Under the pieces are notes generated by a model. The model searched no databases. It saw only the letters and a program-made list of their open reading frames with translations, and had not been told where the DNA came from. Positions 187-11,329 of a DNA stretch of 29,313 bases are shown here, in pieces. The position numbers were made by a program, and so were the translations under genes. Origin of the DNA: a virus (Duplodnaviria > Heunggongvirae > Uroviricota > Caudoviricetes); the IMG/VR virus record IMGVR_UViG_3300045988_071311, positions 1 through 29,313 of that record; one strand, 5' to 3'. Numbering within the stretch: the first letter of the stretch is position 1; the number at the start of each line of letters is the position of its first letter.

Positions 187-735
187 TTACCTTTGCGTGA
201 TTAACTCTTTAGCAAATATTGATAAACCGGGCTTACCTTCTTCAAGGTAACAGCACTTTTCAAATGCTGTGCTCCATTCACCATTGGCGGACATTAACTG
301 GTCTTCATTCAATATATTGCTGTGTTTGCGGAGTAAATTCATTGCCTGCTTTTTTGTAATGCTAAAATCATATTTATCTTGCGTCATATACTCCACCTTT
401 CGAGGTTGGGGAGTAATTGAAATTGGTAATACTGTGACTTTAACCCTGTCTGAAGGTGTTTGGTACAAAGTACGATATGCGGCGTAAATGGCTGCCTTGT
501 CTGATTCGTACTTAATATCTTTCGTTGAACTCCCTGATAAAGTGCGCGGTGAGATTTGGATGTGTAAAGGCTTTTCAGACAAAATTTTGAAAGATGGAAA
601 ATCCTTACCGTCTACGGTATAAGTTGGATAATCATTATAGTTTTCCATCAAGTCATTAATGTTTTTGAATTGTTCAGGTGCTGCAATTGCAGCAAATGAT
701 GACAAAATTAAAGCGCCTGTGACTAAAACTCTCAT
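187..735 (-). CDS. Secreted/periplasmic protein of unknown function (moron between cI and int)
   Basis: 182-aa ORF with ATG start and SD AGGAG 5 nt upstream. N-terminal signal peptide MRVLVTGALILSSFAAIAAP with no lipobox cysteine. Visibly AT-rich compared with flanking phage genes. Its TAA stop is 5 nt from the int GTG start. Confidence 0.7.
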   Translation of the reverse strand: MRVLVTGALILSSFAAIAAPEQFKNINDLMENYNDYPTYTVDGKDFPSFKILSEKPLHIQISPRTLSGSSTKDIKYESDKAAIYAAYRTLYQTPSDRVKVTVLPISITPQPRKVEYMTQDKYDFSITKKQAMNLLRKHSNILNEDQLMSANGEWSTAFEKCCYLEEGKPGLSIFAKELITQR

Positions 736-759: not shown

Positions 760-1374
760 TCAGTCCACGTTATCTATTTTGCTTGCCACTTTCCCTAAAA
801 CTTTTACATCAGAGGCCGCACATTCAAATGATGCTGGTCCGTTTTCGACACGAACTCGCCCGCCAGGCAGACGGTAAACCTGTCTGATGCTCGCAAAACC
901 ATCTATCTCAATCAGCCAGGTGCCGTCGTTGATCTCGCCTTTATATTCACTGACGAGATACGTCGTCGATTCAAATTTGACGAGAAACGGATCTGTGGTG
1001 TTTTGAGGTATTAGGCGTAGGTCATAACGAATCAAGGTTACGTTGTTTAAAATCCCATTTGTGATTTCATTTAATTGCAAAGTCAATCCGTGATCTTCAT
1101 TTGGCATGGCTTCTGGGGTGCCCTTACCAGTAGTTAGCCAAATCAAGGGTATACCTGTGTCCAGATGGCAGGCTATAAGCCAGTCATATGGAAAAGTGTC
1201 ACGCATCCAGCGGTTAGCCATTGTGCTTTGAGATACGCCGAGATGATCACATAGAGCTTGCCTTGTGCTAAATCCATAAGCCTGCAGAATGCGTGTTATG
1301 GCCTCTCTCCCCCCACTTTGAGATGGAAAATTGAATTTTGAAATTTCATTGAGGGTTTTTTTTGTGTTTGACAT
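760..1374 (-). CDS. cI: 186-type CI-like immunity repressor
   Basis: 204 aa, divergent from the early operon. N-terminal HTH-like segment (AYGFSTRQALCDHLGVSQSTMANRW) resembles my recollection of the phage 186 CI N-terminal domain. Length fits 186 CI (about 190 aa), not P2 C (99 aa). Confidence 0.7.
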   Translation of the reverse strand: MSNTKKTLNEISKFNFPSQSGGREAITRILQAYGFSTRQALCDHLGVSQSTMANRWMRDTFPYDWLIACHLDTGIPLIWLTTGKGTPEAMPNEDHGLTLQLNEITNGILNNVTLIRYDLRLIPQNTTDPFLVKFESTTYLVSEYKGEINDGTWLIEIDGFASIRQVYRLPGGRVRVENGPASFECAASDVKVLGKVASKIDNVD

Positions 1375-1474: not shown

Positions 1475-1711
1475 ATGAAAAGTAATTTTTCAATGCGCCC
1501 CAGCATCAATCTTGTGATATCTGAGCCATTCATCACACTGGATGAGTTCTGTCGCCGTACTGGTTACAAGCCTAGCTATGCCCGTCAAATGATCCGGGAA
1601 AACCGTCTGCCCATCAGGAAAAAAGCCGGAGTTAACAGCCTTATCGAAATCAACATGTTCGCGTTGACGATGGAAGCGGCCCAAGGCTGCGAAGTCGCAA
1701 TGCAAGCCTGA
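1475..1711 (+). CDS. Apl/Cox-like excisionase and transcriptional regulator
   Basis: 78-aa first gene of the rightward early operon, directly opposite cI; SD gagga upstream of the ATG. Size and position match Apl (186) or Cox (P2). Confidence 0.6.
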   Translation: MKSNFSMRPSINLVISEPFITLDEFCRRTGYKPSYARQMIRENRLPIRKKAGVNSLIEINMFALTMEAAQGCEVAMQA

Positions 1712-1745: not shown

Positions 1746-2255
1746 ATGTTTGATTATCGTGTTTCCAAACATCCGCATTTTGATGAAGCCTGCCGGGCTT
1801 TCGCACTGCGTCACAACATGGCGAAGCTGGCAGCACGCGCGGGAATGAACGTCCAGACGCTGCGTAACAAGTTGAACCCGGAACAATCGCATCAGCTCAC
1901 GCCGTCAGAAATCTGGCTGCTTACCGATCTGACTGAAGATTCAACGCTGGTAGATGGTTTTCTGGCGCAGATTCACTGCCTGCCATGTGTACCGATTAAT
2001 GAGGTAGCAAAAGAGAAACTGCCGCATTACGTCATGAGTGCAACCGCAGAGATCGGGCGTGTTGCTGCAGGTGCGGTATCTGGCGATGTAAAAACCAGTG
2101 CAGGCCGTCGTGATGCGATCAGCAGCATTAACTCTGTTACACGACTGATGGCACTGGCTGCTGTTTCATTGCAGGCCCGTTTACAGGCTAATCCTGCGAT
2201 GGCGAGTGCAGTTGATACCGTGACTGGCCTCGGTGCTTCATTTGGTTTGCTGTGA
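1746..2255 (+). CDS. cII: CII-like lysogeny establishment activator (186 type)
   Basis: 169 aa, the same length as 186 CII. N-terminus MFDYRVSKHPHFDEACRAFALRHNMAKLAARAGMNVQTLRNKLNPEQ resembles my recollection of 186 CII. Confidence 0.7.
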   Translation: MFDYRVSKHPHFDEACRAFALRHNMAKLAARAGMNVQTLRNKLNPEQSHQLTPSEIWLLTDLTEDSTLVDGFLAQIHCLPCVPINEVAKEKLPHYVMSATAEIGRVAAGAVSGDVKTSAGRRDAISSINSVTRLMALAAVSLQARLQANPAMASAVDTVTGLGASFGLL

Positions 2256-2262
2256 GGTGCTT

Positions 2263-2463
2263 ATGCTAACGAAAGAACCATCATTTGCATCGCTGCTGGT
2301 AAAACAAAGCCCGGCAATGCATTACGGTCACGGCTGGATCATGGGGGAGGATGGTAAACGCTGGCATCCATGTCATTCACAAGATGAATTGCTGGCAGAA
2401 ATATCAACGAAAAAACGGGGGAACAAATGGCTATTGAAGGCGCTGCGGCGACTGTTCCATTAA
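2263..2463 (+). CDS. Hypothetical early protein (position of fil in 186)
   Basis: ORF-track ORF 2233..2463; internal ATG at 2263 is preferred because of SD gaggtg just upstream. Basic C-terminus. Function not recognised. Confidence 0.45.
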   Translation: MLTKEPSFASLLVKQSPAMHYGHGWIMGEDGKRWHPCHSQDELLAEISTKKRGNKWLLKALRRLFH

Positions 2464-2768
2464 GCCCCGGTGAACGCCTGAATGGACTTAATCATATCGC
2501 GGAGTTAAGGGCGAAAGTTTTTGGCCTTAATATTGAGTCAGAGCTTGAGCGGTTTATTAAAGATATGCGTGATCCACGGGATATTAATAATGAACAAAAT
2601 AAACGGGCACTGGCTGCCATATTCTTTATGGCAAAAATTCCAGCTGAACGTCATAGCATCAGCATTAATGAGCTGACCACTGACGAAAAGCGGGAGCTGA
2701 TTAAAGCAATGAATCATTTTCGTGCAGTGGTGAGCTTATTTCCCAGACGGCTAACCATGCCGAATTAA
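2427..2768 (+). CDS. Hypothetical early protein
   Basis: 113-aa ORF in the early operon with SD ggggga upstream. No recognisable motif. Confidence 0.5.
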   Translation: MAIEGAAATVPLSPGERLNGLNHIAELRAKVFGLNIESELERFIKDMRDPRDINNEQNKRALAAIFFMAKIPAERHSISINELTTDEKRELIKAMNHFRAVVSLFPRRLTMPN

Positions 2769-2835
2769 CCAATTAATGAAATTCATGGCGTAAACCCGCC
2801 GGGCATCCCTTTATCTAAATTCAGGAGAATTGATT

Positions 2836-3069
2836 ATGCGTAATATTGAAACCCACACCACTAAAACCGGACCGGATGACGCAGGGCTTAATATTTTACT
2901 GACAGAGGTTCGTCTGGAAGAACGCCGGGCAAGGGCTGAGGCAATGGCTGCCCGCCTTGATAGTCTGGCGTGTCATATCACATCCCGCCAGCTAAACCAC
3001 GTCGAAGCAGCAGAACTGCTGCGTGTGACCGCTGAAGCAATCCAGAACGAAGCGCAGGAGATCCACTAA
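2836..3069 (+). CDS. Hypothetical early protein
   Basis: ORF-track start at 2830 is a TTG; ATG at 2836 has SD aggag 7 nt upstream. Stop overlaps the start of the next gene. Confidence 0.5.
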   Translation: MRNIETHTTKTGPDDAGLNILLTEVRLEERRARAEAMAARLDSLACHITSRQLNHVEAAELLRVTAEAIQNEAQEIH

Positions 3070-3296
3070 TGGCTGATGCAATGGATCTCGTACAGCAGCG
3101 CGTTGAAGAAGAACGCCAGCGCCACATCCGTGCTGCCCGTGCCAAAACGCCGGGCGTGTCCCGCGTGCTTTGCATTGAGTGTGAAGCGCCAATTCCGCCA
3201 GCACGCCGCCGCGCCATTCCGGGAGTGCAGCTTTGCATTACCTGTCAGGAAATAGCAGAGCTGAAAGGTAAACATTACAACGGAGGTGCTGTATGA
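3069..3296 (+). CDS. TraR/DksA-family C4 zinc-finger protein
   Basis: 75 aa with CIECEAPIPPARRRAIPGVQLCITCQ, a CxxC-N17-CxxC motif typical of the TraR/DksA family, which is found upstream of gene A in P2-like phages. Confidence 0.75.
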   Translation: MADAMDLVQQRVEEERQRHIRAARAKTPGVSRVLCIECEAPIPPARRRAIPGVQLCITCQEIAELKGKHYNGGAV

Positions 3297-4150
3297 GCAC
3301 CATCCTGAAATGGGCGGGTAATAAAACTGCCATTATGTCCGAACTGAAAAAATACCTTCCTGCTGGCCCGCGACTGGTTGAACCTTTCGCGGGTTCCTGT
3401 GCAGTGATGATGGAGACGGATTATCCCAGCTATCTGATTGCGGATATTAATCCTGATTTAATCAACCTCTATAAAAAGATTGCCGCTGATTGTGAATCGT
3501 TTATATCTCGCGCCAGAGTTTTATTTGAGAACGCAAACAGGGAGATGGATTATTACAACATAAGGCAGGAGTTTAATTACTCAACTGAAATTACTGATTT
3601 CATGAAAGCGGTATATTTCCTGTATCTCAATCGCCACGGTTACCGTGGGTTATGTCGCTATAACAAGAGCGGGCATTTCAACATTCCCTACGGTAATTAT
3701 AAAAATCCGTATTTTCCTGAAAAAGAAATGCGTGCATTTGCAGTAAAAGCCCAGCGGGCAACGTTTATCTGCGCCAGCTTCGATGAAACGCTGGCGATGT
3801 TGCACGCGGGGGATGTTGTGTATTGCGATCCGCCTTATGACGGTACGTTTTCCGGCTATCACACTGATGGCTTCACTGAAGATGATCAGTATCACCTGGC
3901 ATCCGTTCTTGAACATCGATCATCTGAAGGTCATCCGGTCATTGTTTCTAACAGTGACACATCCCTGATCCGTTCGCTGTATCGCAATTTCACTCACCAC
4001 TACATCAAGGCAAAACGCAGCATCGGCGTGTCGGCTGGCGAGAGTAAATCTGCAACAGAAATCATTGCTGTTTCTGGGGCGCGCTGCTGGGTGGGATTTG
4101 ATCCTTCGCGTGGCGTGGATAGTTCTGCTGTGTACGAGGTGCGTGTATGA
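3293..4150 (+). CDS. dam: DNA adenine methyltransferase (Dam family, probably GATC-specific)
   Basis: 285 aa. N-terminus LKWAGNK...[11 protein letters not shown] and catalytic motif VVYCDPPY are colinear with E. coli Dam as I recall it (FLKWAGGK...LVEPFVGAGSV...VVYCDPPY). Confidence 0.9.
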
Positions 4151-6561
4151 GTCATGACGATATGAGCAACTCTAGCGGCTTTAACGAGGCCGCTGCATCA
4201 TTTTCATGGAACGGCCCGAAAAAGGCCATTAACCCTTATCTGGATCCGGCGGAAGTTGCGCCGGAGTCTGCACTTTCAAACCTGATCACTCTGTACGCTG
4301 CCGATAACGAACAGGAACAACTGCGCCGCGAGGCACTGAGTGAGCAGGTCTGGGAGCGTTATTTCTTTAATGAATCCCGTGATCCTGTCCAGCGCGAAAT
4401 GGAGCAGGATAAGCTCATTAGCCGGGCAAAGCTGGCGCATGAGCAGCAGCGTTTTAATCCAGACATGGTCATTCTGGCGGACGTAAACGCCCAGCCTTCC
4501 CATATCAGCAAGCCGCTGATGCAACGTATTGAATACTTCAGCAGCCTGGGCAGGCCAAAGGCTTATTCCCGCTATTTGCGTGAGACGATTAAGCCATGTC
4601 TGGAACGACTGGAGCATGTACGCGACAGTCAGCTATCCACTTCTTTTCGCTTTATGGCAAGCCATGAAGGGCTGGACGGCCTGCTGATCCTGCCTGAAAT
4701 GAGTCAGGATCAGGTGAAACGCCTGTCTACTCTTGTCGCTGCGCATATGAACATGTGTCTTGATGCCGCTTGTGGTGATTTGTACGCCACCGATGATGTT
4801 AAGCCAGAAGAAATCCGCAAGACATGGGAAAAGGTGGCAGCGGAAACCCTGCGTCTGGATGTCATCCCACCTGCGTTTGAGCAACTCCGCTGGAAAAGAA
4901 ACCGCCGTAAACCCGTGCCCTATGAACTCATTCCGGGTTCGCTGGCGCGTATGTTGTGCGCCGACTGGTGGTATCGGAAATTATGGAAGATGCGTTGCGA
5001 ATGGCGGGAAGAGCAGTTGCGCGCTGTCTGCCTGGTTAGCAAAAAAGCATCTCCTTATGTCAGCTATGAAGCCGTGATGCATAAACGTGAGCAGCGCCGT
5101 AAGTCGCTGGAGTTTTTCCGTTCTCATGAACTGGTGAACGAAGACGGCGACACGCTGGACATGGAGGATGTGGTAAACGCCAGCAGCAGCAACCCTGCGC
5201 ATCGCCGCAATGAGATGATGGCCTGTGTTAAAGGTCTGGAGCTTATCGCGGAAATGCGCGGTGACTGCGCCGTTTTCTACACCATCACCTGTCCGTCACG
5301 TTTCCATTCCACGCTAAATAACGGCAGGCCCAACCCAACCTGGACAAATGCGACGGTAAGACAAAGTAGTGATTATCTGGTCGGCATGTTTGCTGCATTT
5401 CGTAAGGCGATGCACAAAGCCGGATTGCGCTGGTATGGCGTGCGGGTGGCTGAGCCGCATCATGACGGTACAGTTCACTGGCACCTGTTGTGTTTTATGC
5501 GCAAAAAAGACCGCCGCGCCATCACTGCATTACTGCGTAAGTTTGCCATCCGTGAAGACCGCGAGGAGCTGGGCAATAACACTGGGCCGCGCTTTAAGTC
5601 TGAGTTGATTAACCCGCGCAAAGGTACGCCAACAAGCTACATCGCGAAATACATCAGTAAGAACATTGACGGGCGTGGTCTGGCTGGCGAGATCAGTAAG
5701 GAAACGGGTAAATCCTTGCGTGATAACGCTGAATACGTTAATGCCTGGGCGTCTCTGCATCGTGTACAGCAATTCCGCTTCTTTGGTATTCCGGGACGTC
5801 AGGCTTACCGTGAACTTCGCTTGCTGGCTGGTCAGGCGGCAAGGCAACAGGGTGACAAAAAAGCAGGTGCGCCGGTACTGGATAACCCGCGTCTTGATGC
5901 CATTCTGGCTGCTGCTGATGCTGGTTGTTTTGCCACCTACATCATGAAGCAGGGCGGCGTACTGGTTCCCCGTAAATATCACCTCATCAGAACCGCTTAT
6001 GAAATCAACGAAGAGCCGACCGCCTATGGCGATCACGGTATTCGTATTTATGGCATCTGGTCACCCATTGCAGAGGGCAAGATCTGCACTCATGCAGTGA
6101 AGTGGAAAATGGTTCGTAAAGCCGTTGACGTTCAGGAGGCGGCAGCCGACCAGGGCGCTTGCGCCCCTTGGACTCGTGGCAATAACTGTCCCCTTGCTGA
6201 AAATTTGAACCAACAGGAGAAAGATAAATCAGCAGATGGGGATACCAGAACTGATATTACCTGCATGGATGACAAGGAATTGCACGATTACCTGCATAGT
6301 ATGAGCAAAAAAGAGCGCCGGGAACTGGCAGCAAGGTTACGCCTGGTTAAACCGATACGGCGTAAAGACTACAAACAGCGAATTACAGACCATCAACGAC
6401 TGCAGCTCGTCTATGAGCTGAAGTCCAGAGGATTTGATGGCAGCGAGAAAGAGGTCGATTTACTGCTTCACGGCGGCAGTATTCCGTCAGGAGCAGGCCT
6501 GCGTATCTTCTATCGGAACCAGCGTTTGCAGGAAGATGATAAGTGGCGGGATCTGTATTAA
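4147..6561 (+). CDS. A: Replication initiation endonuclease A (rolling-circle, HUH superfamily)
   Basis: 804 aa. HUH motif GTVHWHLL and tyrosine motif YIAKYISKN present. Position after the early genes, as for P2 gpA. Start overlaps the dam stop (ATGA). Confidence 0.9.
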
Positions 6562-6713: not shown

Positions 6714-6902
6714 ATGCAGGACTATTTTTTGGAGTCTTTGAAGCTCCAGCGCATTGATTTTTTTCTTAAGCTTGTAGCGGCTAGTGAGTGTAGTGATGAA
6801 GAGAAGGGGCTGGCTTTGCAGTGGGTTTCTGAATTGACTGATGAACTCATGGCAAAAATCAGAAGCCACGAATACAACCGCTCAATGGATGTCATCAGCT
6901 GA
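6714..6902 (+). CDS. Small SOS-regulated protein, candidate Tum-like antirepressor (by position only)
   Basis: 62-aa ORF with SD aggagg 4 nt upstream of the ATG, immediately downstream of the LexA box and promoter. Confidence 0.5.
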   Translation: MQDYFLESLKLQRIDFFLKLVAASECSDEEKGLALQWVSELTDELMAKIRSHEYNRSMDVIS

Positions 6903-6912
6903 GGTGACTTTT

Positions 6913-7146
6913 ATGCGCATTGAAATAATGATCGATAAAGAGCAGAAGATTAGCCAGTCTACCCTGGACACCCTTGAATCCGAGCTTTACCGCAATCTGC
7001 GCCCCCTGTATCCCAAAACGGTAATTCGCATTCGCAAAGGTAGCTCTAACGGTGTGGAACTAACCGGACTGCAACTGGATGAAGAAAGAAAACAAGTGAT
7101 GAAAATTATGCAGAAGGTGTGGGAGGACGACAGCTGGCTGCATTAA
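6913..7146 (+). CDS. DinI-like protein
   Basis: 77 aa from ATG 6913, with SD gaggtg upstream. MRIEIMIDK...LESELYRNLRPLYP...WEDDSWL aligns with E. coli DinI (MRIEVTIAK...LAGELSRRIQYAFPD...WESADDW). The ORF-track version starting at 6841 is probably an over-extension. Confidence 0.8.
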   Translation: MRIEIMIDKEQKISQSTLDTLESELYRNLRPLYPKTVIRIRKGSSNGVELTGLQLDEERKQVMKIMQKVWEDDSWLH

Positions 7147-7276
7147 TGAACGTTGCTGGCGCCAGGACTTGATTCTGACGCCAGCGAGGTTGAACTACGA
7201 GCAGGGCGAGGCGCTAGCCAATGGTTGGTGAGGCATTAATTAATCATAGATTGAGAATGGTTTCTAATTTTAGATA

Positions 7277-8008
7277 TTAACTCATGAGAGAGAAATCTAA
7301 AGAATATTTAACAATGGACTTTTCTGCTTTATACCATTTAACATGTGACCATTCTTTTCCTGAAAGTAAAGAACGTATCTCTTCTTTACTTTCTTCACTG
7401 GTTCTCAAACCAAAAGCTATAGAGTTTATTGCTTTGGGCTCAAACTTTAATGCACCAGAATCTAACTTTATAAGTCTCCGCTCACGTTCATATCTCCAAC
7501 CGGAATATTTAGTTCCCAAGATTGAGTGAATTATATCACCAGCAATATTATGTAAGTTATTTTCGTTAGGGTGGTTCTCAAAAAAGTTGAGTCTGTCAAT
7601 GATGCCTTGATAAGGGTAGTTGCTTTGATACGTAATGTCTATGGCATGTATTTTTGAGCCTTCATATCTTAATTCCTTCTCTTTAAACCCAATGCAGAAC
7701 CCTCTATGTTCATCAGCGTAGTGGGACCACATTAATTGGTTCTTACGTGCCCGGCTTAAAGCGCAAACACCATATGTGCTTATTGACTCTTTTAGAGCTT
7801 CCTCAAATTTCAATTTCAAATCCAACGGTAGTTCTTTACGGGCCCATACTGCGGCTAAAACATCAGGAAAGGAAGTTTCAGCTTCGAAGGGGTCATTAAA
7901 GTTATCTGCAGTAGCGAACCATAATTCACGATTGCGAAGAACACGCAGTCCATCGTCTTTGCAGTTTCGATATTTAAATAAAATTCCATTTTTTACCGTG
8001 GTGTTCAT
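7277..8008 (-). CDS. Uncharacterised 243-aa cytoplasmic protein in the A-to-Q accessory hotspot; candidate anti-phage defence protein (possibly DUF2971-like)
   Basis: Long ORF on the strand opposite to all neighbours, strongly AT-rich by eye. No signal peptide or TM segment. Motifs LWFATADNFNDPFE and MWSHYADEHRGFCIGF resemble what I recall of the DUF2971 family; family call is tentative. Possible extended -10 (TGnTATAAA) around 8075..8080 on the minus strand. Confidence 0.75.
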   Translation of the reverse strand: MNTTVKNGILFKYRNCKDDGLRVLRNRELWFATADNFNDPFEAETSFPDVLAAVWARKELPLDLKLKFEEALKESISTYGVCALSRARKNQLMWSHYADEHRGFCIGFKEKELRYEGSKIHAIDITYQSNYPYQGIIDRLNFFENHPNENNLHNIAGDIIHSILGTKYSGWRYERERRLIKLDSGALKFEPKAINSIAFGLRTSEESKEEIRSLLSGKEWSHVKWYKAEKSIVKYSLDFSLMS

Positions 8009-8341
8009 TTTTGATTTATCCCCTTTTCAAACTGAATGAACATATTTTCTCATGCATCGAGAACTGGCACGGCATTTATACACCAAATGTGCAGCAGTCG
8101 CATTATGCCCGCAACAACAATTCTGTTATAGCCAATTTAGCTACAGTCTATAAAGTACACACTACATTAGTAAACTAAAAAGCTAGGACGTTAGACGGTT
8201 TTTGTTTTGGGGAGCACTGCATGTCTATGCCGCATGAATCCGCATGATCGTTTGAGGATCGTTTTTGCTGAGGCCCGCCAGAACTGGCGGGCTTTTGCTT
8301 ATGTCATGCAGGTGCATGAAAATCACTGCATAAAGCGGGCA

Positions 8342-8360
8342 GGCGTGGCGGGGATACGAG
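8342..8360. other. cos: Candidate cos site (cohesive-end sequence)
   Basis: ggcgtggcggggatacgag matches the first 13 nt of the 19-nt cohesive end I recall for 186 (GGCGTGGCGGGGAAAGCAT) and P2 (GGCGAGGCGGGGAAAGCAC). Located between the accessory island and portal gene Q, as in P2. Confidence 0.55.
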
Positions 8361-8522
8361 CGCGCGCAACGGGGTAAAATGGCCAAAATCCGGCACAGCC
8401 TCTGGCCCGCTGGCGGCCTCATTTAGTGGAGAGGGGGGAAGATGTCAGGGCAAAAAGAAACGCCCCGCAGAATGCTGCTGAGGCGTTGTGAGAGTTGGTC
8501 GGTTATTGATGTTATGAGTATG

Positions 8523-9566
8523 TCAGCCTCGTTTGCCCTTAAGTCCTAAGTCATAAGCTTCAAAACGGATCACCTCTTCATCCAGCCAGTCATTCAGCTC
8601 CTGCAGTCGCTTTTGCAATGGCATCAGTTCATTGCGGACGAAGACACGGCTCGCTTTTTCCACATCACCAAAGCCGCCAGTATTGTTGGGAATGATGCCC
8701 ATCATTTGCGGCGGTACGCGGTGAGCCGCCATCATGTCATCGCGGCTGACGTTCTTGATGTTCAGAAATTCATCCTTCGCCGCGACTTCCGACAACGGGA
8801 TAATCTGAATGCCATCTTTTTTGCCGTTAGGCGAGTACATAAACAGGTTGCGAAAGTTGCCGGGTCCTTTAGCACTTTTCATTGCCTTGCGGATGTTGTT
8901 CACATCCTCCTGGTTCTGCGCGGCATCGGTCATATACATGATGAAGCCAGCATGGCTGCCGTTAATGTAATACTTACGACGGAACAACGTGGCGGACTCG
9001 TTGAGCAGAGCTGACGGAATGGCAGAAAGGTAACCCGGCAGACCATAAATCTCCTGGTTGATATCCGGCTCCATCAGGTGGAAGACGTTACCTTTTGTGA
9101 ACTGATACGGCTGTGTAGTCAGGCTGTATTGCACAAACCAGTATGTTTCAAGGTCAAGCCCGCGTCGGGTGTATTTTGCCAGTGCAGGCTCCAGCGAAAT
9201 AACTTCACCAAAGCGGTTCGTGCGTTTCTCCAGGTAGGCGTTACCAAAAACCAGATAGTCCTGCACAAAACGGGTAAATGCCTGCTGGCTGAGAAGGCGA
9301 TGTGGAATATAGGTACTGCTGATAATGTCACGCTTAACACTGATCGGGGAGCTGTGGTGCACGGCGGCGCGGAAGGTGCGCGCCAGTCCGTCAAAGCTGA
9401 CGGGCGGCTCATACCAGCGATCCATCTGTACGCATTCCACATAGTCCAGCAGTTCGCGGCGGTCCAGTACGGGGATGGGATCACCAAAGCTGAAAGCCTC
9501 CGCAACGGTTTTTTTAGTTTCTTCTGCAGTTACGGTTTCGCCTGGCGCGATATGTTCTTTCATCAA
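8523..9566 (-). CDS. Q: Portal protein
   Basis: 347 aa (P2 gpQ about 344 aa), first gene inward from cos, followed by and co-oriented with the large terminase. Confidence 0.85.
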   Translation of the reverse strand: MMKEHIAPGETVTAEETKKTVAEAFSFGDPIPVLDRRELLDYVECVQMDRWYEPPVSFDGLARTFRAAVHHSSPISVKRDIISSTYIPHRLLSQQAFTRFVQDYLVFGNAYLEKRTNRFGEVISLEPALAKYTRRGLDLETYWFVQYSLTTQPYQFTKGNVFHLMEPDINQEIYGLPGYLSAIPSALLNESATLFRRKYYINGSHAGFIMYMTDAAQNQEDVNNIRKAMKSAKGPGNFRNLFMYSPNGKKDGIQIIPLSEVAAKDEFLNIKNVSRDDMMAAHRVPPQMMGIIPNNTGGFGDVEKASRVFVRNELMPLQKRLQELNDWLDEEVIRFEAYDLGLKGKRG

Positions 9567-11329
9567 AAAATCTCCACAATATTGCTGGTATTGGCGGACT
9601 CGCCCTGCAGCGGTTCGTTAAACAGTGCGTGCATTGTTGCCCAGGCCAGATCGGCATGGCTGGCTTCTTCGCTGCGGCTGGCTTCATAGGTCGGGCGGTT
9701 GCCGCTGGCGGTGGTGGCGCGACGGATTGCCATGAATGACTGCGCTATGTCGGTGTGCCCGGCGTCAAACTCCAGACGGCGGTGGCTGATAATGTCGTAG
9801 GCCTTGAGTACCAGGGCGTTTTTAACGTTGGGGTTGTAGACAAACTCCCGGACGGCAGGAAAGAACGCTTTCACGTTCTCGTAAACCCCGTGGCCGACGC
9901 CAGTTGAGTCGATGCCGATGTATGTCACGTTGTACTGTTCGGTCAGTTTTTTGATGGCGTCAGCCTGGGCGCGGAAGTCCATCCCGCGCCACTGGTGACG
10001 CTCAAGAATGCGGAACTTACCGCCCGGCACGGCTGGCGGAGCCACCACCACGCATCCGGCGCTGTCGCCGTTCTGCGTACCTTTTGCCGGGTCATAACCG
10101 ATCCAAACCTCGCGCCAGCCAAACGGGCGCAGCGCCAGTGCATGAAAGTCGGTCCAGACTTCCCAACTGTCCACCATGCACGCCTGCAGCTCGCTGAGCG
10201 GGAACACGGACGCGAGATCGTCCACGAACTCACACATCAGCAGGTTCTGGTATTCGTCCGGGCTGTACTCCATGCGCAACTGGTCGAGATCGAACAGGTT
10301 ACAGCCGCCGCGCACCGCATCTTCCACAGTGACTATCTGGCGGTACTGCCCGTCTGCGCACAGCAGGCCGGGGGCCAGATTGCTGTGGGACAGGTCGATG
10401 TCCACCCTATCGGCTTTGTTGCGCCCTCGGTTGAACAGCGCACCGGACCAGAACGGATAAGCACTGTGTGTCAGGCTGGATGGTGTGGAAAAATAGGTTT
10501 GTCGCCATTTCTTGTGAATCGCCATACCGGAAGCCACTTTGCGCAGCTCCTGGAATTTCGGTATCCAGAAATATTCATCCAGATACAGGTTGCCGTGGTA
10601 ACTCTGGGCCGTGCGGGCATTGGTGCCGAGGAAATACAGTGTGGCCCCGTTGGGAAGCACCATCGGATCGCCTTTCAGCTCCACCTCCACTTCTTTGGCA
10701 AAGTCGATGATGTACTGCTTGAAGACGTGGGCCTGTGCCTTACTGGCAGAAAGGAAAATCTGGTTACGTCCGGTCAGCAGGGCGTCAATCAGGGCTTCAC
10801 GGGCAAAATAGAAGGTCGCGCCGATCTGGCGTGACTTCAGCAGGTTGCGGATGCGGTTGGTTTTTCCGGCTTCCCACCAGTGGCGCTGATAGTTGAACAT
10901 GGAGGAATGGAAGATTTCTTCCAGCTTCTCAATCTGTTCATCGGTGAAAACGTTCTTTTCCGGCTGACGGCGCGGGCCTTTGTTGCGGTTGGCGACGTTA
11001 GGGTTTAAGTCGGCTTCGTTGCCGCCATTGTTAAACTTGCCGATCCGCGCGTGGCGCTCAGACTGGCGCGCCAGCAGGTCAATCTCTTTGAAATCTTTCC
11101 CTTCTTTGTGCTCCTTCATAATGAGCTGGCAGTAGCGTGCGGCGGTGGTGAGCTGCATCTGATCCAGCGGCCCATAGTCACCCCACTTGTCGCGTTTTTT
11201 CCAGCTGTGAACGGTTGCAACTTTCTCGCCCAGCATTTCAGCAATGCGGGCTACGCGGTATCCCTGAAAGTACAGCAGCATGGCCTGCCGACGGGGATCG
11301 AGATCTGCGGGTGTCAGTGTGGTGTTCAT
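9563..11329 (-). CDS. P: Terminase large (ATPase) subunit
   Basis: 588 aa (P2 gpP about 590 aa). N-terminus ...AMLLYFQGYRVARIAEMLGEKVATVHSWKK is typical of P2-family gpP. Overlaps Q by 4 nt. Confidence 0.9.
   Translation of the reverse strand: MNTTLTPADLDPRRQAMLLYFQGYRVARIAEMLGEKVATVHSWKKRDKWGDYGPLDQMQLTTAARYCQLIMKEHKEGKDFKEIDLLARQSERHARIGKFNNGGNEADLNPNVANRNKGPRRQPEKNVFTDEQIEKLEEIFHSSMFNYQRHWWEAGKTNRIRNLLKSRQIGATFYFAREALIDALLTGRNQIFLSASKAQAHVFKQYIIDFAKEVEVELKGDPMVLPNGATLYFLGTNARTAQSYHGNLYLDEYFWIPKFQELRKVASGMAIHKKWRQTYFSTPSSLTHSAYPFWSGALFNRGRNKADRVDIDLSHSNLAPGLLCADGQYRQIVTVEDAVRGGCNLFDLDQLRMEYSPDEYQNLLMCEFVDDLASVFPLSELQACMVDSWEVWTDFHALALRPFGWREVWIGYDPAKGTQNGDSAGCVVVAPPAVPGGKFRILERHQWRGMDFRAQADAIKKLTEQYNVTYIGIDSTGVGHGVYENVKAFFPAVREFVYNPNVKNALVLKAYDIISHRRLEFDAGHTDIAQSFMAIRRATTASGNRPTYEASRSEEASHADLAWATMHALFNEPLQGESANTSNIVEIF

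Follow-up and report, generated by a model that had tools for sequence, protein, structure and literature searches.

We analysed a 29,313-nucleotide stretch of tailed-phage DNA (Caudoviricetes; positions 1 to 29,313 of IMG/VR record IMGVR_UViG_3300045988_071311), hereafter the window, which is a nearly complete P2-family prophage of Escherichia coli with an early region of the 186 type. In the hotspot between replication gene gpA and portal gene Q (gpQ) it carries a horizontally acquired one-gene cargo. The gene (7277..8008, minus strand) encodes a soluble 243-aa protein of the DUF2971/PDC-S31 family with a predicted DarT-like, ADP-ribosyltransferase (ART)-like fold. On balance, and by a modest degree, we favour the view that the product is a stand-alone anti-phage effector of the abortive-infection (Abi) type, which has an ART fold, uses NAD and is triggered by phage. 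The parts of this picture differ in strength: a role in defence is probable, genuine ADP-ribosyl transfer is an even question, and a nucleic-acid target is possible but doubtful. The defence role is supported by the family to which the protein belongs, its place in a hotspot insert, the cargo positions of its homologues, purifying selection on the gene, and the lack of a partner in the insert.

The boundaries of the cargo were set by blastn against the empty-slot prophage of Escherichia coli APEC O18 (L016). Homology to this prophage ends at 7218 and restarts at 8218, and 7 bp separate the two end points in the empty slot. Therefore, the cargo is 7219..8217, a 999-bp insert with a GC content of 0.37 that holds a single gene and its upstream region. 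The initial annotation had drawn the slot at 7147..8220, which is essentially right, and the open reading frame (ORF) that it had described at 7277..8008 on the minus strand, with an ATG start and 243 codons, is present. Its placement of the gene between replication and portal genes was also borne out, as the gene is flanked by gpA (4147..6561, plus strand; PF05840, E=1e-127), the left landmark of the hotspot, and by Q (8523..9566, minus strand; PF04860, E=4e-19), the right landmark. The same is true of the convergent orientation: the DinI-like gene on the left (6913..7146, plus strand; PF06183, E=7e-22), which belongs to the prophage backbone and is kept in empty-slot prophages, ends at 7146 on the opposite strand, and the cargo gene is co-oriented with Q and with the terminase gene P (9563..11329, same strand as Q). 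The gene had been called much more AT-rich than the phage backbone, and its GC content is indeed 0.373 (0.33 at third codon positions, GC3), while the window as a whole has 0.527 and genes A and Q have 0.52 (GC3 0.56 in A). Within 7219..8217, there is no Rfam match, and neither Tandem Repeats Finder nor a repeat search found tandem or direct repeats. Three small ORFs (8011..8178, 8207..8377 and 8225..8422) were considered as hidden partners and are unsupported; the last two are in the conserved backbone between the cargo and Q (8218..8522), which is 95-97% identical to E. coli prophages.

The DUF2971 family model of Pfam (PF11185) matches residues 93-179 of the product over its whole length of 89 positions, with 46.6 bits against a cut-off of 22 (E=9e-12). 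Thus, the tentative association with DUF2971 in the initial annotation was correct. Both motifs that it had singled out, LWFATADNFNDPFE at residue 29 and MWSHYADEHRGFCIGF at residue 93, are present and within the conserved pattern described below. In PADLOC, the protein matches four of the five models of PDC-S31 (PDLC04990, E=1e-47; PDLC04994, E=4e-33; PDLC04991, E=6e-30; PDLC04992, E=5e-14). Its PHROGs family is 1762 (E=4e-59), which has no known function, and NCBIfam holds no family for it. All 142 diverse homologues that we compared match DUF2971 as well as PDC-S31, without a match to any other ART or Abi family, and PDC-S31 is therefore in effect the DUF2971 family. The PDC entries are 145 'phage defence candidates' taken from genes embedded in BREX, DISARM or type I restriction-modification (RM) loci (Payne et al., bioRxiv 10.1101/2024.01.29.577857). 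While PDC-S31 was defined from such loci, the gene in the window sits in the P2 gpA-gpQ hotspot, which is an independent defence context. In keeping with the single-gene nature of PDC-S31, the insert has one supported ORF, and the genes next to it vary from one orthologous locus to another. DUF2971 has been placed in a survey of ART families as a new family in the H-Y-E clade, similar to DarT, AbiGi and Tox-ART-HYD1; in this family, the His of motif I is poorly conserved, motif II has a strictly conserved Tyr, motif III is of the ExE form, and the helical inserts are large (PMC12522546). The gene had initially been described as not assignable to a characterised system and perhaps as an undescribed one, and this does not hold: the protein is a member of PDC-S31, it carries the domain of the validated system Aristaios, and the DarT-like ART nature of its family has been published. 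The gene adds a member to an already catalogued family. Moreover, public databases already contain the identical protein, under the name 'DUF2971 domain-containing protein [Escherichia coli]', on 55 contigs, and there are near-identical copies in the Enterobacter cloacae complex.

A word-indexed search found 103 clusters of close relatives of about 240 aa across Gammaproteobacteria. Identity to the window protein is 96% in Klebsiella aerogenes and 89% in Leclercia, and at most 62% thereafter. The wider family is far larger. An exhaustive profile search of 1.84 billion representatives gave 34,206 clusters at E<=1e-3 (counted at 50% identity), 22,352 at E<=1e-10 and 1,983 at E<=1e-30, and the best 150 profile matches are mostly full-length to free-standing proteins of about 240-290 aa. 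To describe conservation we used an alignment of 142 sequences with a mean identity to the query of about 28%. N38, D39, W94, Y97, G103, K167, W171, E174, R178 and G200 are invariant in it, and K12, P40, G80, H96, H101, C105, Y127, Y173 and E176 are conserved in at least 90% of the sequences (M1 is the start codon). As read from the alignment, the polar and aromatic part of this set (N38/D39, W94/H96/Y97/H101, K167, W171, E174-x-E176 and R178) is typical of an enzyme active site, and the conserved residues agree with the motif II Tyr and the ExE motif III published for DUF2971 (PMC12522546).

Three groups of these residues can be placed on the predicted model as candidate elements of an ART active site. 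N38-D39-P40-F41 (codons at 7886..7897, minus strand) forms a loop after strand 28-33 and, from its conservation, is a candidate NAD- or nicotinamide-binding element; F41 is invariant in the close subfamily. W94-S-H96-Y97-A-D-E-H101-R-G103 (7700..7729, minus strand) is a candidate ART motif II with the invariant Tyr, and its short helix (95-98) lies between strands 80-85 and 104-109. The invariant Y97, on the helix between core strands, is one candidate for the motif II residue, and F41 in the NDPF loop is the alternative. K167-Y-S-G-W171-R-Y173-E174-R-E176-R-R178 (7475..7510, minus strand) is of the ExE type and, by its conservation, a candidate motif III with the catalytic Glu. A long helical insert precedes it, and it lies where strand 176-181 begins, the place at which motif III of an ART would be expected. 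On strand 28-33, no conserved His or Arg is evident. K12 and R14 are both on strand 9-14, and R14 is conserved only in the close subfamily.

The AlphaFold2 model, built from a 50-sequence alignment, is a confident one, with a pLDDT of 87.4 and a pTM of 0.84. The one significant Foldseek match in the Protein Data Bank (PDB) was to DarT of Mycobacterium tuberculosis from a structure of the DarTG complex (7yk3_C; E=6e-4, probability 0.99), and further ARTs (cholera toxin A, NarE and CARDS toxin) followed as a weak tail. The match to DarT is distant, with about 136 of the 243 residues aligned at about 10% identity. In a viral fold library, only unnamed or uncharacterised phage proteins were matched. 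Two large helical inserts (47-76 and 133-164) and an additional beta-alpha-beta-beta unit at the C terminus (~194-243) set the predicted model apart from DarT. Thus, the model has an ART-like fold as well as a DarT-like three-dimensional fold. It is consistent with the NAD-dependent ADP-ribosyltransferase superfamily, with DarT and Tpt1, which are nucleic-acid-modifying members, as the nearest relatives in structure. Taken together, Pfam, PADLOC and structure prediction with Foldseek, three of the checks that had been proposed with the initial annotation, gave DUF2971, PDC-S31 and an ART-like fold.

The structural match raises the question of whether the protein is a DarT. We built a DarT profile of 30 sequences from the DarT of an E. 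coli prophage, which occupies the same slot, and its homologues; its invariant residues include Y14, H15, T17, R33, R52, N69-P-F-D-G73, K141 and M145-A-E147. Shallow and deep DUF2971 profiles were compared with it by hhalign and gave probabilities of 0.23% and 0.54%, which are not significant. The only stretch that hhalign paired was NDPF(E/D) with NPFDG of DarT, and this pairing is not significant either. Pfam PF14487 (DarT) does not match the window protein even at E<=1, and a DUF2971 profile search of all PDB sequences returned nothing at E<=10. No macro-domain or NADAR match came from the ORFs scanned in the early region and on the flanks; in the structural module, most ORFs were not scanned one by one. 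Membership in DarT or DarTG was thus rejected: there is no sequence-family match, and no DarG or NADAR antitoxin is adjacent. Since both sequence membership and the cognate antitoxin fail, we did not file the protein as a DarT, but according to the predicted model it at least folds like one. The two also differ in detail. DarT (PDB 7YK3, 7OMV, 7OMU and 8BAQ) has its own NAD-binding loop with a catalytic Arg (R51/R52), for which the window protein has no evident counterpart, and the motif I His of DarT appears to be replaced in the K12/R14 region.

The gene is under strong purifying selection, as judged from a ratio of nonsynonymous to synonymous substitution rates (dN/dS) of 0.075 against the K. 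aerogenes orthologue and 0.128 against that of Leclercia (overall range, 0.08-0.17). These values rule out a non-functional ORF. The maximum Kyte-Doolittle hydropathy over 19 residues is 0.52, and there is no signal peptide and no hydrophobic segment, in agreement with the cytoplasmic location that had been predicted. The non-coding part of the cargo upstream of the gene (8009..8217, minus strand) contains a good Shine-Dalgarno sequence, AAAAGGGG, at 8020..8027, and a weak sigma-70-like site (ATAACA-16-CATAAT, 8129..8102, 9 of 12 positions), the sole minus-strand match of this kind upstream. About 190 bp of the upstream region are conserved with the K. aerogenes locus (L001), and the Leclercia locus (L003) keeps only the proximal ~50 bp.

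Rousset et al. (2022, PMC9122126) place the P2 hotspot near cos, in the region that separates gpA from gpQ, and give 1,650 arrangements among 18,150 loci. They describe Rst_DUF4238 as a validated single-gene system from this hotspot. Like the gene in the window, it encodes a single DUF protein in the gpA-gpQ slot of P2-like prophages, but the two protein families are unrelated. The validation of Rst_DUF4238 shows that a cargo of one gene can give active defence from this slot. Among the validated P2-hotspot systems, the main text of that study does not mention DUF2971. Of 5,426 complete E. coli genomes, about 1,260-1,300 have the flanks of the window slot (90-97% identity), and none of these has the window insert itself. 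In a spread sample of these flank-bearing loci, the slot is either empty or carries an HNH endonuclease, DUF6236, retron St85 or Ec67, DprA, TIR, PIN, HEPN, DUF262/GmrSD, AIPR, an ATP-dependent (OLD-like) nuclease, an AAA ATPase with an S8 peptidase, SieB, HipA, a KAP P-loop NTPase, DarTG or a STAS-like domain-containing protein. Thus, the cargo in this slot alternates with known defence systems in other E. coli prophages (retrons, DprA, TIR, PIN, HEPN, GmrSD, AIPR, OLD-like nuclease and DarTG), as would be expected from the initial description of it as a defence hotspot. A genuine DarT (193 aa) with a macro-domain DarG is found in the identical slot of E. coli O22:H8 RM10809-3 (L019, NZ_CP023165.1, 3490..7995), directly after the DinI-like gene. 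Beyond DarTG, this locus has an IS5 fragment, hypothetical genes of 368, 144 and 221 aa, and a frameshifted portal gene.

Close homologues in the equivalent hotspot of related prophages, whose absence had been named as evidence against a defence role, are present in K. aerogenes, Leclercia and E. coli. Those of K. aerogenes and Leclercia are in the same slot between DinI and portal, each with different extra cargo. In the gpA-gpQ slot of E. coli there is a 57%-identical allele (19 of 5,426 complete genomes) with a PDC-M18A/B pair beside it. As this allele shares its slot with the pair, the E. coli locus (L006, CP163594.1) stacks several candidate systems. Outside this slot, the K. quasipneumoniae homologue is at a prophage end next to tail-fibre genes, the Providencia homologue is in a P2-like remnant beside an AAA_15 ATPase pair, and the Citrobacter homologues are in integrase/AlpA/resolvase islands. 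The Serratia homologue is beside an AbiP/AbiC-like gene, that of Vibrio beside SIR2_2, and that of Shewanella beside an HNH gene. More widely, tblastn against plasmids gave 750 DUF2971 records, including ~110-kb plasmids of E. coli and Klebsiella. Distant DUF2971 genes (~30% identity over the core) are carried by Escherichia phage Cyrano (OV696614.1), SSU5 (JQ965645.1) and pJN2-26 (MZ779062.1), which are ~100-110 kb in size, and there is also one in Bacteroides BS-TP3. Because distant members occur in phages, phage-plasmids and ~110-kb plasmids, DUF2971 is not confined to temperate P2-type cargo.

Some of these loci have further genes near the homologue. In the E. coli locus, 2694..4344 and 5597..6016 hold PDC-M18A/B (380 aa, E=9e-41, and 158 aa, E=3e-19) and a gene of 139 aa that has no match in PADLOC. 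The K. aerogenes locus has a 324-aa protein and a 112-aa DUF4325/STAS-like protein between the DUF2971 gene and the portal gene (3453..4765), and this pair has weak PADLOC matches (PDC-M65A, 3e-3; DrmA region, 8e-7). In three Citrobacter loci (L010-L012, ~7014..8004), an upstream gene of 260-295 aa, with no Pfam or PADLOC match, overlaps the DUF2971 gene by 4 bp. The Citrobacter pair may be a two-gene variant of the system.

The only DUF2971-domain protein with a phenotype is Aristaios, a 316-aa, Abi-like protein from the Lactococcus plasmid pUCCL641_199 (PRJNA1086404) that protects against lactococcal phages (Grafakou et al. 2024, PMC11381338). DUF2971 is its sole recognised domain (Table 1 of that study), and its AlphaFold model resembles an ADP-ribosyltransferase (PMC11381338). 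It is reported to block phage transcription and the production of structural proteins but not DNA replication (PMC13064643, PMC12967558), whereas DarT blocks DNA replication. Like Aristaios, the window protein is free-standing, has DUF2971 as its only recognised domain and a predicted ART-like fold, is carried by a mobile element and lacks an antitoxin. They differ in size (316 and 243 aa) and in origin, a Gram-positive plasmid and an Enterobacterial P2-type prophage. No Lactococcus record was among the matches listed in the tblastn search of plasmids. The Tpt1/KptA RNA 2'-phosphotransferases (PDB 7YW4, 9LD3 and 7YW2) are fold neighbours with no sequence similarity to the window protein. Tpt1 is a housekeeping enzyme, while the window gene is mobile cargo. 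The catalytic set of Tpt1 is based on Arg and His, and the invariants of the window protein (N, D, W, Y, K, W, E and R) are unlike it.

If the favoured reading of a phage-triggered effector is right, infection might proceed as follows. In a lysogen, the protein would be held inactive by its own non-core parts, namely the inserts at ~47-76 and ~133-164 and/or the C-terminal unit at ~194-243. A superinfecting phage would switch it on, and with NAD+ as its substrate the active protein would ADP-ribosylate a target that phage gene expression requires. The example of Aristaios would make RNA or the transcription/translation apparatus a likelier target than DNA, and that of DarT would make DNA the alternative. 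Infection would then stop, and the infected cell would pay for this with growth arrest. A bolder extension, which we hold only tentatively and think rather improbable, is that DUF2971 may be a mechanistically new class of single-chain immune enzymes: DarT-like ADP-ribosyltransferases of nucleic acid, probably RNA, that could do without an antitoxin because the inserts and the C-terminal unit would shut the active site until a phage component opens it.

Several points weigh against an anti-phage ART effector. PDC-S31 is a prediction only (bioRxiv 10.1101/2024.01.29.577857), and our literature search found no demonstrated anti-phage phenotype for the window protein or for any Enterobacterial DUF2971 protein. 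The link to Aristaios is a shared Pfam domain within a family of 34,206 clusters, and the relationship may be distant. The canonical motif I His or Arg is not clearly identifiable in the window protein. The Azotobacter homologue is among housekeeping genes and has no defence context, and the presence of DUF2971 genes in virulent or plasmid-like phages such as Cyrano, SSU5 and pJN2-26 allows non-defence roles. Expression from the cargo itself is also less clear than had been assumed. The initial annotation had given the gene its own promoter, and one sigma-70-like site is there, but a promoter scan of the upstream region found 5 promoter-like sites against 4.2 +/- 2.1 in shuffled sequence, which is no excess, and a terminator scan did no better than shuffles. 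Because both scans match shuffled sequence, the claim of an own promoter stays unproven.

Among other explanations, the nearest would keep the defence role and change the chemistry: the protein could be a same-family effector that acts as an NAD+ glycohydrolase (NADase) and depletes cellular NAD+, like SIR2 or TIR effectors. Many ART-fold toxins have NADase activity. The ART fold and the ExE-type motif are also compatible with NAD+ hydrolysis, the antitoxin-free design is typical of NAD-depleting Abi effectors, and one homologue adjoins a SIR2_2 gene. However, the best structural matches, DarT and Tpt1, are true transferases acting on nucleic acids, and Aristaios is reported to hit phage transcription and protein production specifically, although a global loss of NAD+ could do likewise. 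We consider this explanation unlikely, and a role outside defence a shade more so. Such an ART-like enzyme might serve the prophage or the host through modification of proteins, such as host RNA polymerase, during lytic growth (as by T4 Alt/ModA/ModB), lysogenic conversion or virulence, or a stress response. The occurrence of the family in Cyrano, SSU5, pJN2-26, Bacteroides BS-TP3 and the 750 plasmid records would fit this, as would homologues that have no defence neighbourhood. About 18% of DUF2971 proteins are predicted secreted effectors (PMC12522546), and Rousset et al. (PMC9122126) also report non-defence cargo in the P2 hotspot, such as partition systems and cytolethal distending toxin. 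But the window protein is soluble with no secretion signal, the family was independently found inside BREX, DISARM and RM loci, and a protein with the same domain is proven defence. In addition, presence of the gene varies among prophages that are otherwise 94-96% identical, where it is swapped for bona fide defence genes, and thus it is not part of the lytic programme.

An ART-like scaffold that does not catalyse, such as a pseudo-enzyme, a binding protein or a decoy, or a function unrelated to NAD, seems improbable in view of the dN/dS values and of the 10 invariant and 9 at least 90%-conserved residues, most of which are N, D, H, Y, K, E, R or W, as is characteristic of an active site. The explanation to which we give least weight, and which we regard as very improbable, is the toxin of a toxin-antitoxin (TA) or addiction module that mainly stabilises the prophage, with an antitoxin that is unlinked or is an unrecognised small RNA or peptide in the insert. 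DarT, the structurally closest family, is a highly toxic TA toxin that ADP-ribosylates bases of single-stranded DNA (PMC11543638), a DarT and macro-domain pair occupies the same slot of another prophage, and the overlapping upstream gene of Citrobacter could be a partner. Against this, the insert has neither a second supported ORF nor a macro or NADAR domain, and neither tandem repeats nor an Rfam match; the same lone gene is kept in K. aerogenes and Leclercia with different neighbours; and the Aristaios gene alone, carried by a high-copy vector, is tolerated and active (PMC11381338).

The rest of the window follows the P2/186 plan. The early region comprises a CI repressor (760..1374, minus strand), a Cox/Apl-like gene (1475..1711), CII/CP76 (1746..2255), a Fil-like cell-division inhibitor (2233..2463), DUF5347, a DksA-like zinc-finger gene and a Dam methylase (3293..4150). 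A 62-aa gene of PHROG 698 lies between gpA and the DinI-like gene, and the structural genes through gpD follow terminase P. For the DinI-like gene, the mechanical ORF (6841..7146) has 101 aa while annotated homologues have 77 aa, and the start is therefore probably the ATG at 6913, which has GAGG ahead of it. Phage 186 has the gene of the SOS-induced antirepressor Tum at this position, and the DinI-like gene, which directly adjoins the cargo, may be a switch for prophage induction. Within the 3' part of the DUF2971 coding sequence, there is a perfect 12-nt inverted repeat with an 8-nt spacer (GAAAGTAAAGAA / TTCTTTACTTTC, 7362..7393), which may be a chance product of AT-rich DNA. The window also has a second AT-rich orphan gene (187..735, minus strand; 182 aa, GC 0.377) directly downstream of cI, at a position where the K. 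aerogenes relative has an integrase. Its product has a clear Sec-type signal peptide (MRVLVTGALILSSFAAIAA|PEQ) and no match in Pfam, PADLOC or PHROGs, and it is probably a secreted or periplasmic moron.

If the protein is active, it would be the first Enterobacterial and genetically tractable example of DUF2971/PDC-S31. It also raises the question of how a DarT-like toxin fold stays harmless without a DarG or NADAR antitoxin, and another E. coli strain, whose prophage has a genuine DarTG in this same slot, offers a natural comparison. In annotation, it is reasonable to mark a 'DUF2971 domain-containing protein' of a P2-type hotspot as a candidate for ART-type defence. Should the reading as a new class of immune enzymes prove true, the more than 34,000 clusters of DUF2971 would make it one of the largest NAD-dependent defence families yet to be characterised, and the E. 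coli P2-hotspot allele would be a convenient model for its trigger and target.

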